A stretch of DNA of 63,446 nucleotides, filler included, from Stramenopiles sp. TOSAG23-3 (Eukaryota), in assembly GCA_900128585.1 (NCBI GenBank). It is 21 parts of 21 records of this genome, joined end to end, with 100 filler letters (N's around TTAATTAATTAA, not from the genome) between each part and the next. Parts side by side here need not be neighbours in the genome. Positions count along the whole stretch, not along the records: positions 46,548 to 48,339 come from LT645383.1; 20 more parts are not named here. The stretch is one strand, 5' to 3'. Positions 9,577-48,439 of this stretch are shown here, piece by piece. The position numbers were made by a program, and so were the translations under genes. The notes under the pieces are model-generated. The model did no database searches, had not been told where the DNA came from, and worked only from the letters and a program-made list of their open reading frames with translations. The number at the start of each line of letters is the position of its first letter. The stretch's first letter is position 1.

Positions 9577-10410
9577 TCAATTTTGCTTCTTTCCCCCGTC
9601 CTTCCCTTTCGACCGTTTTTCTTTCGGGTAAAACACGACGTCAGTTCGGACGATGCTTTTACGCCCCTTCTGCACAACCGACCCTTCGTGCAAAGGGTCG
9701 GTATGGCACCCTGTCATTCTGCCGTGGGGAAAAATCAAAATGTCTCCAGTTTTAGGAACGACGGAGATCGAGCCAACCTCTTTCGATAGCGTCATGAGCC
9801 GTTCGGGGGTGTTTCCTTTTTTACTCTGCAGGGCAGGACTGTCGTCCGCGAGCTGAAAGAACGTTGTCGTTCCCCCGTCAAAGTCTTCGTTCAGGTACAC
9901 GAGCATGGAATACGCTGAAAAGGACAGGAGGCGCCCGGTCTTTTTGTCGTGCTGTGTGAAACTTTTGTCAAAATGGGGCGTAGAGAACTCCCCTTCCTCG
10001 TAGTCGTACAGCCGAAGGAACCCTGATACCTCGTACCCTGGTGGTGCAAGCGTCGCCGTGTTCTTCGGTCCCGCCACCCCCGGAAGAAATTGGCGAATAA
10101 TAGAGCCTAACGGAGCGACGTGTGCGGCGTCAGCGTGAACTGGAGTATGGTGCTGGGATTTTCGCCTGTCTTTTATATCGTTCCCTCCGTCGTCGCCAAC
10201 CTTAGTGGTTCCCTGCCTTTCCCGAATTGTCGTTTTAATTACGCTCCGAAGCCCCATGCAAATTTCGTTGCATTTTGCACTGGTCATCACATTTCTAAGC
10301 AAAAATGCCCCAGGAACACCACCAACTGCTTCCTTCACAATCTCCTCGTAATCGTCTTCCCTATCAACCGAACTGAAAGCCTGTAGAAACACTTCCTTTG
10401 CCGCCTCCAT
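9577..10410 (-). CDS. 2-oxoglutarate/Fe(II)-dependent dioxygenase (prolyl-4-hydroxylase-like 2OG-FeII_Oxy domain)
   Basis: PHFD (HxD), YLNEDFDGGTT, distal His in LHEG and the 2OG-binding K/R in GRKSIVRTD. Confidence 0.9.
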   Translation of the reverse strand: MEAAKEVFLQAFSSVDREDDYEEIVKEAVGGVPGAFLLRNVMTSAKCNEICMGLRSVIKTTIRERQGTTKVGDDGGNDIKDRRKSQHHTPVHADAAHVAPLGSIIRQFLPGVAGPKNTATLAPPGYEVSGFLRLYDYEEGEFSTPHFDKSFTQHDKKTGRLLSFSAYSMLVYLNEDFDGGTTTFFQLADDSPALQSKKGNTPERLMTLSKEVGSISVVPKTGDILIFPHGRMTGCHTDPLHEGSVVQKGRKSIVRTDVVFYPKEKRSKGKDGGKKQN

Positions 10411-46238: not shown

Positions 46239-46659
46239 CCTTTTAAGAGAAAGTTCGTACTTACTGACTTAGTAATAATTTAGAAGAGTAATTCTTTAAG
46301 ATTACTTCGTGTAAGAATTATGAGATACCTCTCTTTATTAAAAACATGATTTGTTTTTTCTTTTTTAACATGAAAATTGGCTGTTACTTGTCTATAGCAT
46401 CAGGGCTCCGGATATTCCGTGCCTATATCCCAACGGCCCTGCCAATGNNNNNNNNNNNNNNNNNNNNNNNNNNNNNNNNNNNNNNNNNNNNTTAATTAAT
46501 TAANNNNNNNNNNNNNNNNNNNNNNNNNNNNNNNNNNNNNNNNNNNNAATGGAGAAATTATTTATGTGGAATTTACACCATAAATAATTCAAAAAACGTT
46601 CAAAAAAAAGTCCCCTTTCATATTTTTAGAAACAGAATAATTCAAAGTCTTTATCAACT

Positions 46660-47694
46660 ATGCATATGCTACTCAATATATTTTCTGTTTCCGTGGTCTT
46701 GCTGCTCAGCGCGGACCATGGATCTGCTGCTGCCGCCGGTAAAGTCTGGAGGTATAGTGGTGCGACGAAATATTGGACGGATATTACCTCCTCAGCAGAC
46801 GGGGCGAAGCTGGCGGCGACTGTTGAATATGGCAACATATGGACCTCCAGCAACAGCGGTGCCACCTGGACGGAAGTAACCTCCATTGGTGCGACGAAAC
46901 GATGGGCTGATATCACCTCCTCGGCAAACGGGACGAAGCTGGCGGCGACTGTGATTTACGGCAACATATGGACCTCCAGCAACAGCGGTGCGAACTGGAC
47001 GGAAGATACCTCCGTTGGTGCGACGAAAGATTGGTATGGTATCACCTCCTCGGCAGATGGAACGAAGCTGGCGGCGAGTGTGTTCAGTGGCAACATATGG
47101 ACCTCCAACAACACTGGTGGGACTTGGAAGGCCGTTGGTGCGACGAAACAGTGGGCCCACTCAGCTATCACCTCCTCAGCAGACGGGACGAAGCTGGCGG
47201 CGTGTGTGTTCAGTGGCAACATATGGACCTCCAGCAACAGCGGTGCGACCTGGACGGAAGATACCTCCGTTGGTGAAAGTTGGGGAGCTATCACCTCCTC
47301 GGCAGACGGGACGAAGCTGGCGGCATGTGAGAATTTTGGCCTATGGACCTCCAACGACAGCGGTGCGACCTGGACGCGGCAGCACAGTGAAGTGCCAGGT
47401 TGTAATGGAATCACCTCCTCGGCAGACGGGACGAAGCTGGCAGTGGTTGCTAATGGTGGCAACATATGGACCTCCAGCAACAGCGGCGCGAACTGGACGG
47501 AAGATACCTCCGTTGGTGCGAAGAAAGCTTGGTATGGTATCACCTCCTCAGCAGATGGGACAAAGCTGGCGGCAGTTGTAAGTGGTGGCAACATATGGAC
47601 CTCCAACAACAGCGGTGCGACCTGGACCGAAAGATCCGTTGGTGCGAGGAAAGACTGGCAAGCTATCACCTCCTCGGCAGACGGGACGAATTAA
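46660..47694 (+). CDS. Secreted Asp-box (BNR) repeat beta-propeller protein; ends abruptly in the eighth repeat
   Basis: Signal peptide, then about 44-aa repeats ITSSADGTKLAA....GNIWTSSNSGATW (Asp-box SxxxGxTW). Confidence 0.85.
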   Translation: MHMLLNIFSVSVVLLLSADHGSAAAAGKVWRYSGATKYWTDITSSADGAKLAATVEYGNIWTSSNSGATWTEVTSIGATKRWADITSSANGTKLAATVIYGNIWTSSNSGANWTEDTSVGATKDWYGITSSADGTKLAASVFSGNIWTSNNTGGTWKAVGATKQWAHSAITSSADGTKLAACVFSGNIWTSSNSGATWTEDTSVGESWGAITSSADGTKLAACENFGLWTSNDSGATWTRQHSEVPGCNGITSSADGTKLAVVANGGNIWTSSNSGANWTEDTSVGAKKAWYGITSSADGTKLAAVVSGGNIWTSNNSGATWTERSVGARKDWQAITSSADGTN

Positions 47695-47819
47695 GCTTTG
47701 GAGGATTAGAAGACATCAACGACAAATAAATGAAAAAAAGTGAAGTTGAAGTTTAAGTTGGTAGCGTTGGGTCAATGCAATAAATGAAGGCGATAACGTC
47801 TGATATCTTAAACATATAT

Positions 47820-47827
47820 AAAATTGA
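47820..47827 (+). promoter_or_regulatory. AAAATTGA Mimiviridae-type early promoter motif
   Basis: Exact octamer followed by TTTAAAG, about 31 nt before ATG 47859, in an AT-rich virus-like segment. Confidence 0.55.
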
Positions 47828-47858
47828 TTTAAAGAAAAACTTTATATATATATTATAT

Positions 47859-48197
47859 ATGAAGTCTTTTGGTAATTCGTCATACGAACAAGTAGAACAA
47901 GAGGTAATGGAACTGTTAAATAATCCAACTGTAAGAATAAAATCTACAATATGGGAGAAATGGAATGACTATTCACCATTAGCTCACGACATTGCAAAAA
48001 TTATATACAATACAGATGATAAAACACTATGGAGAAAATGTGGTGAAAAAATTCACGATAACTATCAAAAAGATAGTTTTTATGTATTGCAATCAATCTA
48101 TTATATTTTATGTTGGTGTTCGGATTTTAAAGAAAAGCACCAAACAATGAGAATATTAGAACATTCCTGGAACAATATAGGCGATTGGGTAGCCTAA
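47859..48197 (+). CDS. Small AT-rich virus-like hypothetical protein (112 aa)
   Basis: A/T-ending codons unlike the adjacent gene, C-terminal W..IG.W.. motif, and a stop codon overlapping the convergent gene. Confidence 0.7.
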   Translation: MKSFGNSSYEQVEQEVMELLNNPTVRIKSTIWEKWNDYSPLAHDIAKIIYNTDDKTLWRKCGEKIHDNYQKDSFYVLQSIYYILCWCSDFKEKHQTMRILEHSWNNIGDWVA

Positions 48198-48337
48198 TCA
48201 GGGTCATAAAATTTAGTATTGAAATTCTTCCTATATTGTTTCATTGGGTCGAGGGTCTTCAGATCGATCATAAAAAAATTATACCCATCGGTTGCGTCAT
48301 TAAACATTTCAACAAAACGTTCTTTTGTTGTATTGTA
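48194..48337 (-). CDS. C-terminus of a probable A32/FtsK-like DNA packaging ATPase (Polinton-like virus type)
   Basis: Not in the ORF track. Manual translation YNTTKERFVEMFNDATDGYNFFMIDLKTLDPMKQYRKNFNTKFYDPD* matches the F..h...AT..Y.Fh.ID......YRKNF tail I recognise from Polinton/PLV packaging ATPases. The Walker motifs lie beyond the contig edge. Confidence 0.65.
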   Translation of the reverse strand, partial: YNTTKERFVEMFNDATDGYNFFMIDLKTLDPMKQYRKNFNTKFYDPD

Positions 48338-48439
48338 TCNNNNNNNNNNNNNNNNNNNNNNNNNNNNNNNNNNNNNNNNNNNNTTAATTAATTAANNNNN
48401 NNNNNNNNNNNNNNNNNNNNNNNNNNNNNNNNNNNNNNN

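Follow-up and report, generated by a model that had tools for sequence, protein, structure and literature searches.

The window considered here is a 63,446-nt stretch of the assembly of Stramenopiles sp. TOSAG23-3, and the subject of this account is the right end of one contig within it (46548-48339; 1,792 nt), where two convergent genes lie in AT-rich DNA. The first is represented by the last 47 codons and the TAG of what reads as an A32/FtsK-HerA-type DNA-packaging ATPase gene (48194..48339, minus strand), recognized by the identity of its C-terminus to that of PF04665 proteins. The second is an open reading frame (ORF) of 112 codons (P0001; 47859..48197, plus strand), which specifies a conserved, small protein, all-helical according to its structure model, and which by comparison with its relatives appears to be an accessory gene. 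This end of the contig is a real fragment of a Polinton-like or virophage-like virus in a protist assembly. All positions given for the features of this segment in a first-pass annotation, made from the sequence alone, are correct to the base.

The minus-strand frame 48337..48197 reads YNTTKERFVEMFNDATDGYNFFMIDLKTLDPMKQYRKNFNTKFYDPD (47 aa) and then a stop; the remaining two minus-strand frames are full of stops. The TAG (CTA on the plus strand, at 48194-48196) overlaps the TAA of the 112-aa ORF (48195-48197), and the gene was missed by the ORF track because it runs off the contig end at 48339. The overlapping stops, the convergent gene and its 47-aa peptide, all pointed out in the first-pass annotation, are borne out by direct reading. 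The same annotation had taken the peptide for the tail of an A32-like packaging ATPase and had suggested a profile search with it as the check. Taken literally, that check fails (the peptide on its own matches 0 Pfam families), and it is the relatives of the peptide that uphold the assignment. A search among longer proteins gave 14 matches from 15 candidates. Eight of the 14 are metagenome proteins whose C-termini are 94-98% identical to the peptide over 100% of its length; 11 carry PF04665, and the remaining 3 are fragments of 136-157 aa. Relatives that match the tail are 231-235 aa long, and the three full-length ones that were scanned (231-234 aa) all match Pox_A32 at 38.7-48.6 bits (cut-off 22.8). 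Since it spans residues 25-204 of these relatives, the Pox_A32 match reaches no further into the tail than its first 15-20 residues. The 98%-identical relatives have readable Walker A (GKSGSGKT) and Walker B (IVFDD) motifs; the N-terminal 184 codons of the present copy, with the positions of the Walker motifs, lie outside the window. On the strength of these near-identical C-termini the minus-strand tail is firmly predicted to be the C-terminus of an A32/FtsK-HerA packaging ATPase.

Over the 141 coding nt that the tail shares with a close relative in metagenome DNA (locus L002), there are 21 differences, 20 of them at third codon positions; 19 of the codon changes are synonymous and 1 is non-synonymous, and DNA similarity ends exactly at the stop codon. 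The third-position bias of these changes implies that the ATPase gene evolves under purifying selection and is not decaying.

A profile search with the ATPase scored 8,000 candidates, of which 1,444 proved to be relatives. Only 18 of the best 120 of these are at least 64% identical, all on contigs of 3.9 kb or less. Among the matches listed, the next full-length relative after this tight marine clade is 39% identical, nothing outside the clade exceeds 40% identity to its ATPase, and the 20 nearest non-clade relatives lie on contigs of up to 14.3 kb. The longest known contig of the clade (6.5 kb; 6,499 nt) carries a cluster member, P0035. Names are of little help: a cluster look-up of 10 relatives returned only 'hypothetical protein', and the profile-search matches listed include no useful name. 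Comparison of the ATPase with NCBIfam gave only sub-threshold P-loop matches, and comparison of its profile with PDB sequences gave 0 matches. No relative was found in a prokaryote genome collection searched with the ATPase alignment, in a phage collection searched by tblastn, or in IMG/VR searched with one ATPase sequence. Judged by these matches the ATPase lineage has to date been met with only on short contigs from marine metagenomes; it is undescribed in the libraries searched.

The 112-aa ORF could be extended. An in-frame ATG at 47784 would give a protein of 137 aa and would place an upstream octamer, AAAATTGA (considered below as a candidate promoter element), inside the ORF. Four relatives (P0023, P0018, P0019 and P0021) begin at the 112-aa position, which makes the 112-aa start the better reading. 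There are five relatives among 1.84 billion representatives (E 3.5e-57 to 5e-5; 29-90% identity), and a 112-aa form with three substitutions is present as a cluster member. Two relatives, P0019 and P0020, lie on contigs of 24,959 and 13,516 nt. The AlphaFold2 model made from the alignment has five helices, with a predicted local distance difference test score (pLDDT) of 93 and a predicted template modelling score (pTM) of 0.87. The product of the ORF is a real, conserved protein and, by this model, a well-folded one. It matches no Pfam, PHROGs or NCBIfam family. A fold search with Foldseek gave no match (best E 2.4 in PDB and 1.6 in BFVD), and its look-alikes in the ESM Atlas score 0.89 or less and belong to unrelated families. 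Two candidate likenesses were set aside: TRIP13_N, at a Pfam E of 0.066, is below the cut-off, and a likeness to the N-terminal domain of tyrosine recombinases (five of the top 26 VIA-align rows; best Z 6.0) is below the noise of helical proteins and serves only as a lead.

The five-helix family ends in a W-x-G-[IV]-G-x-W motif and is undescribed in the libraries searched. Its alignment found no member in IMG/VR and none in the prokaryote genome collection. A distant relative is aligned by hhalign (probability 95.4%, E 1.8e-8) at 9899-10156 of a GC-rich IMG/VR contig, L005, where the scanned ORFs upstream of it are phage recombination genes according to PHROGs (RecT, exonuclease, HNH endonuclease and NinB-like). 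The presence of this relative in a phage-like contig implies that the family spans viruses of eukaryotes and of bacteria. (A 13-residue match in a further contig, L006, was judged spurious.)

The slot downstream of the ATPase, filled here by the 112-aa ORF, holds an 82-aa zinc-finger-like ORF in L002, and the presence of different small genes at one position marks it as variable. An oligo-dT metatranscriptome (run X15) contains one 155-nt contig that matches 48132-48198 and departs from the present sequence on either side; this contig derives from a relative and is no evidence of transcription of this copy. The overlapping stops are bracketed by a 14-nt inverted repeat (48168-48181/48230-48243) that is complementary at 13 of 14 positions. 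A terminator hairpin at this repeat was rejected: about 0.3 such pairs are expected by chance (a rough figure), and the arm within the ATPase gene is not conserved in L002 at the nucleotide level.

Four loci of relatives bear on the kind of virus. The close ones (L002, L003 and L004) come from the metagenome scan and the distant one (L001) from IMG/VR; the clade DNA examined amounts to ~5.2 kb (5,221 nt). In L002 the ATPase gene is followed by the convergent 82-aa zinc-finger-like ORF and then by a 134-aa ORF, 285 nt downstream of the ATPase. The 134-aa ORF is 33% identical to an L001 ORF that lies ~1.6 kb from the L001 ATPase, and the two have invariant His, Asp, Gln and Cys positions in common. 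The L001 ATPase is 30% identical and sits on a 5.9-kb IMG/VR contig with a giant-virus-bin name, the sole IMG/VR relative; the other L001 ORFs have a capsid-like look by eye, to which no weight is given, and matched no family profile. In L003 and L004 a divergent 394-aa Lys/Arg-rich ORF starts no more than 45 nt from the ATPase start. All three close ATPase genes have a box, TTTCTAAATATA, ~20 nt before the ATG (L002 140-152; L003 ~455-468; L004 ~1230-1243; read upstream of the ATPase), which lies inside the divergent spacer (45 nt at most). Within the box is TCTA, taken here as the core of the late promoter of Cafeteria roenbergensis virus (CroV) and mavirus.

The rest of the contig, and of the window, is of a different character. 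The window is a chain of unplaced contigs and not one molecule (it has 42 runs of N). From 13,704 on (13704-63446) its blocks are separated by an identical 100-nt spacer (44 N + TTAATTAATTAA + 44 N), and from 27,594 on block length falls steadily from 1,798 to 1,785 nt. Constant spacer and falling length together imply that the contigs were sorted by length and that neighbours across a spacer are unrelated, which calls for caution in reading gene order: the contig beyond 48339 has nothing to do with the segment under study. An ORF running into a spacer is a cut gene, and adjacency across a spacer (for example across 48340-48439) is meaningless. The source is a flagellated eukaryote with intron-free long ORFs, and 19 of the 31 other long ORFs of the window match Pfam families, all ordinary eukaryotic ones (dynein heavy chain, formin FH2, flagellar C1a-32, ArfGap+FYVE and protein kinase among them). 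When all ORFs of L001-L004 were compared with the window by tblastn, the search for further viral pieces returned the ATPase tail only. The contig 46548-48339 is without a match in Rfam.

Upstream of the viral part lies a GC-rich 344-aa ORF with BNR/Asp-box (Sortilin-Vps10-like) repeats and a hydrophobic N-terminus (46660..47694, plus strand; Pfam BNR_6, E 1.6e-11), which by eye may be a signal peptide. Its best database relatives are 38-61% identical and belong to a very widespread repeat family; no relative of it was found in IMG/VR. Its GC content is 0.561 and its GC at third codon positions (GC3) is 0.629, far from the 0.265 of the 112-aa ORF and inside the GC3 range spanned by the window's other long ORFs, which extends from 0.36 (dynein heavy chain and formin) to 0.78 (an amino-acid transporter). 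So wide a span means either a very heterogeneous genome or an assembly that mixes more than one organism. Between the BNR ORF and the 112-aa ORF is a spacer of 164 nt (47695..47858, plus strand), comprising the 3' flank of the one and the upstream region of the other, in which GC drops from 57% to 21-28%; any boundary between host and virus falls within it. In 100-nt windows GC is 21-35% over 47695-48339, as against 51-62% inside the BNR ORF. The low GC that the first-pass annotation had remarked on is therefore there, and it is not special to the segment: 17 other stretches of the window, 300-900 nt long and 8,650 nt in total, are below ~32% GC.

At its left end the contig begins with a high-copy repeat (46548..46628), recognized by its depth: these first 81 nt have a depth of ~310-320 in two runs of the same organism (X1 and X3), as against ~50 (X1) and ~3 (X3) for the rest, and contigs split into several different continuations at 46595-46630. 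The repeat has 24% GC and no Rfam match, recurs in a marine metagenome run (X4), and has no second copy in the window; it is probably the reason why the assembly broke there. At the right end, the 122 nt of ATPase tail from 48193 to 48314 occur in at least three flank contexts in same-organism runs. One variant with 6-7 differences and a different downstream flank is present in both samples, and one identical copy of the tail diverges at 48201; X4 has 48173-48339 with 3 differences. That both ends of the contig lie in repeats explains the cut ATPase gene and favours the view that the organism has several related copies. Judged by these flanks, the element would form a multi-copy family in which the gene that follows the ATPase varies. 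Parts of the contig are found in 20 public runs: in three small runs, all from one organism, 39-59% of the words sampled from it are present, and 17 marine, aquatic or estuary runs have word shares of 0.05-0.13. (Comparison at the level of sequence used contigs, not raw reads, of four runs (X4 and X15 being the marine ones), and stretches that these leave uncovered are not evidence.)

The explanation that best accommodates what was read directly and what can be built upon it is, taken whole and with its promoter hypothesis left aside, reasonably probable. The last 645 nt of the contig would be one end of a copy of a small Polinton-like or virophage-like double-stranded DNA (dsDNA) virus, whose ATPase gene is cut only by the contig end and whose two genes end on overlapping stops. 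The full element would carry the usual morphogenesis module (in relatives the ATPase stands beside an adenain-like maturation protease), and the small gene in its slot after the ATPase would vary from one relative to another. The assembler would have stopped inside the ATPase gene because the organism has several related copies, and at least this copy would be integrated beside a host-type gene for a secreted BNR-repeat protein. Further resident copies probably exist beside the one that the fragment represents, and that several are integrated is likely, if not proven; whether the element is integrated at all we regard as evenly balanced. Purely as a hypothesis, the AAAATTGA/AWATTGA box found ~20-45 nt before some starts would be a promoter core, read by the transcription machinery of a co-infecting virus of the Imitervirales, and the ATPase would package the element genome into capsids during giant-virus infection, as in the virophage PgVV-14T. 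The most far-reaching version, in which an undescribed lineage with several integrated copies, an AWATTGA/AAAATTGA early box borrowed from Imitervirales and interchangeable accessory genes stays silent until giant-virus infection and then serves as an inducible, virophage-type defence, is distinctly unlikely in all its parts together. The observations that weigh against the explanation are set out in the following paragraphs, with the part of it that each concerns.

The promoter is the part most exposed. The first-pass annotation read AAAATTGA as a giant-virus early promoter ~31 nt before the 112-aa ORF and built on it a tripartite system of host, giant virus and Polinton-like virus (PLV). The motif is where it was placed, as a single octamer at 47820..47827 (plus strand; 5' base at -39), separated by 31 nt from the ATG at 47859, which puts it within the 150 nt upstream of the start that are typical of an early promoter. 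(According to PMC5294985 and PMC6163669, ~45% of mimivirus genes, for the most part early ones, have AAAATTGA in the 150 nt before them.) Neither the promoter nor the tripartite system is established by it. The window as a whole has 6 matches to AAAATTGA against 7.64 expected, and 79 of 100 shuffles have at least 6; none of its 31 other long ORFs is a giant-virus marker. The other AT-rich stretches of the window contain 1 copy in 8,650 nt, counting both strands. For one plus-strand copy in the 164-nt spacer the composition-based expectation is 0.039, which makes it mildly unlikely, though for a motif chosen after looking. The exact motif is in none of L002, L003 and L004, occurs once in L001, where it is inside an ORF, and is present in one of the nine windows upstream of starts that the ~5.2 kb of the clade provides, which is not the high prevalence of a shared promoter. 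The count of the motif upstream of the element's genes, which the annotation itself had offered as a check, goes against its early promoter on all these scores (one copy at the element, no enrichment in the window, 0 of 3 close relatives). A scan for bacterial-type promoters and terminators gave nothing exceeding shuffles.

A looser form does somewhat better. AATATTGA precedes the 82-aa ORF of L002 and the 394-aa ORF of L003 and L004, and the consensus AWATTGA has 6 occurrences in the 5,221 nt of the clade (both strands). Four of 9 windows have it in the sense direction no more than 70 nt before a start, where shuffled sequences lead one to expect 0.46 (P ~0.001); only 2 of the 6 occurrences are elsewhere. 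The consensus was defined post hoc and two of its four upstream matches are orthologous; the three close ATPase genes have no AWATTGA box and share TTTCTAAATATA instead. The upstream recurrence of AWATTGA in these sequences is a lead, not a result. It has to be set against the alternative that the copy of AAAATTGA is a chance occurrence in AT-rich promoter DNA, and that the genes are read by host RNA polymerase II, or without any giant-virus-specific signal, as in self-replicating PLVs. That alternative has somewhat better than an even chance of being right. The single copy, the absence of enrichment and of the motif in the close relatives are what it predicts, an expectation of 0.04 is no extreme value when the motif was picked out only once the sequence had been read, a TATA-rich run stands directly before the ATG of the 112-aa ORF and likewise before the 82-aa ORF of L002, and some PLVs are described as replicating without a giant virus. 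The distribution of AWATTGA speaks against it (subject to its post hoc definition), as does the precedent of PgVV-14T, a PLV virophage that uses AAAATTGA itself: in the available part of its description (10.1101/2022.07.28.501842), the AAAATTGA-core early motif of Phaeocystis globosa virus (PgV) stands upstream of five genes. The same source assigns late promoters to Sputnik and mavirus, and CroV is described as reactivating only those endogenous mavirus-like elements (EMALEs) that have the CroV late motif (PMC10945749). A promoter read by a giant virus is unlikely at this locus, and the promoter and tripartite idea of the first-pass annotation is best kept as a fair hypothesis.

Integration beside the BNR gene depends on the junction at 47694, which is bridged in X1 only, by one 724-nt contig that spans 47591-48314 with 2 differences and connects the BNR stop, the spacer, the 112-aa gene and the ATPase tail. 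X1 may be the source data of the window assembly itself. X3, the second sample of the same organism, has BNR and 112-aa pieces with 0 differences at a depth of 2.8-3.7, and no listed X3 piece crosses 47694. Amplified low-input libraries can hold chimeric joins. Composition alone cannot fix the origin of the AT-rich part: the 112-aa ORF has a GC3 of 0.265, and the ATPase tail, at 0.36, equals the minimum among host ORFs. The clusters of BNR look-alikes in the ESM Atlas add a difficulty from the other side, since the nearest are mostly labelled viral (one as Nucleocytoviricota), with few members of known phylum; the BNR gene is taken as a host-like neighbour of the viral part, and these labels weakly raise the alternative that it is virus cargo. 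It is accordingly conceivable, if somewhat unlikely, that the viral part is real and that it does not belong next to the BNR gene: a free or episomal Polinton-like virus would have been sequenced with the cell (infecting it, attached to it or eaten by it), and its end fused to host DNA in amplification or assembly. The solitary bridging contig would be accounted for in this way, as would the near-identical ATPase tails of marine metagenomes, which place the virus in circulation outside this organism, and the repeats at both contig ends, where assemblers mis-join. An artefact of this kind is harder to reconcile with the X1 depth, which is continuous over both halves (48.2 and 56.2), with the recurrence of both halves in the second same-organism sample with no differences and at like depth, and with ATPase variants in different flanks in both samples, which fit resident multi-copy elements. 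Residence of the element in the organism, with this copy beside the BNR gene, remains the preferred explanation.

As to the kind of virus, a short ATPase beside a very small adenain-like protease is the morphogenesis module of Polintons, mavirus and virophages, and is not known as that of the nucleocytoplasmic large DNA viruses (NCLDVs). The small ATPase, the adjacent adenain-like ORF and the dense AT-rich DNA make a Polinton-like or virophage-like virus a better fit than a giant virus, and the tail is very probably the virus ATPase of such an element. The protease is the weak member: the match of the L002 134-aa ORF to Peptidase_C5 is sub-threshold (E 0.0057; 16.8 bits against a cut-off of 21.3), a two-sequence profile of the L002 and L001 ORFs gives 11 weak matches to PDB sequences (E 0.035-1.9; adenain at 0.035, Chlamydia Dub1, African swine fever virus S273R and SENP1 among them, by depositor names), and its structure model is poor (pLDDT 41); the ORF is a candidate adenain-like protease. 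No capsid, penton, integrase or terminal repeat was seen in the ~5.2 kb of the clade. The first-pass label of a PLV fragment is good for the small-virus context (small ATPase, adenain-like neighbour, short spacers) and does not extend to the PLV class itself, since PLV, virophage and Polinton stay undivided here. Assignment to the PLVs calls for a PLV-type FtsK-HerA ATPase, a double-jelly-roll capsid gene and a genome of about 14-40 kb. (In the available text of PMC9952930, a virophage call takes dedicated profiles of the major capsid protein (MCP), ATPase and protease, and a PLV ATPase profile flags PLVs.) That the AT-rich part belongs instead to the genome of a giant virus (Nucleocytoviricota) or to a giant endogenous viral element, with its own A32 ATPase and its own AAAATTGA early promoter, is improbable: PF04665 is the poxvirus/NCLDV A32 family, the sole IMG/VR relative (L001, 30% identical) has the name of a giant-virus bin, some relatives of 33-36% identity are on contigs of 140 kb to 2.9 Mb, and AAAATTGA is described as a hallmark of Mimiviridae early genes, but the ATPase is short (231-235 aa) and near a very small adenain-like ORF in both L002 and L001, the longest known clade contig is 6.5 kb, 0 of the 31 other long window ORFs is an NCLDV marker, and a bin name on a contig of only 5.9 kb carries little weight.

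To our knowledge, few triplets of host, giant virus and small virus are known, and only one (that of PgVV-14T) uses an early promoter. Integrated PLVs and virophages are thought to be inducible defences of protists against giant viruses. With this fragment a marine flagellate would join the known hosts and the ATPases would gain a new lineage, and the candidate promoter box could link that lineage to its giant virus once complete genomes exist. By itself the fragment is too short to establish such a link, and its value is as a pointer for re-assembly.

Comparison with known systems places the element as follows. With the poxvirus A32/NCLDV ATPase family (PF04665) it shares relatives that score above the cut-off and have Walker A and B motifs. 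Unlike the NCLDV members of that family, the protein is shorter, and it is encoded in dense, small-virus-like DNA beside a 134-aa protease-like ORF, with no NCLDV core gene nearby. PgVV-14T (Gezel-14T, the PLV virophage of PgV) is likewise a small dsDNA virus with an A32-type ATPase; in the available part of its description, the mesomimivirus AAAATTGA-core motif precedes five of its genes and related PLVs are host-integrated (10.1101/2022.07.28.501842). The likeness is drawn without sequence comparison, and the motif occurs once here as against five to ten times there. For PgVV the available text reports no gene that resembles a virophage marker (MCP, penton, ATPase, protease). In relatives of the present element, by contrast, an adenain-like ORF stands beside the ATPase. 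Endogenous PLVs and virophages are well documented in protists, as far as the available text of PMC10120064 and PMC12220804 goes, and the endogenous PLVs described there are AT-rich viral insertions, often in many copies, as the present element appears to be; it differs in being known only from a 645-nt end, without element borders or a capsid gene. Mavirus and the EMALEs of Cafeteria, together with the virophages (Maveriviricetes), resemble it as integrated, multi-copy small dsDNA viruses of a marine flagellate whose core module is described as an FtsK-HerA ATPase and an adenain-type protease. The promoters of mavirus and the EMALEs are described as matching a specific giant virus, which reactivates them; the signal that they use is the late motif of that giant virus, where the box considered here would be an early one.

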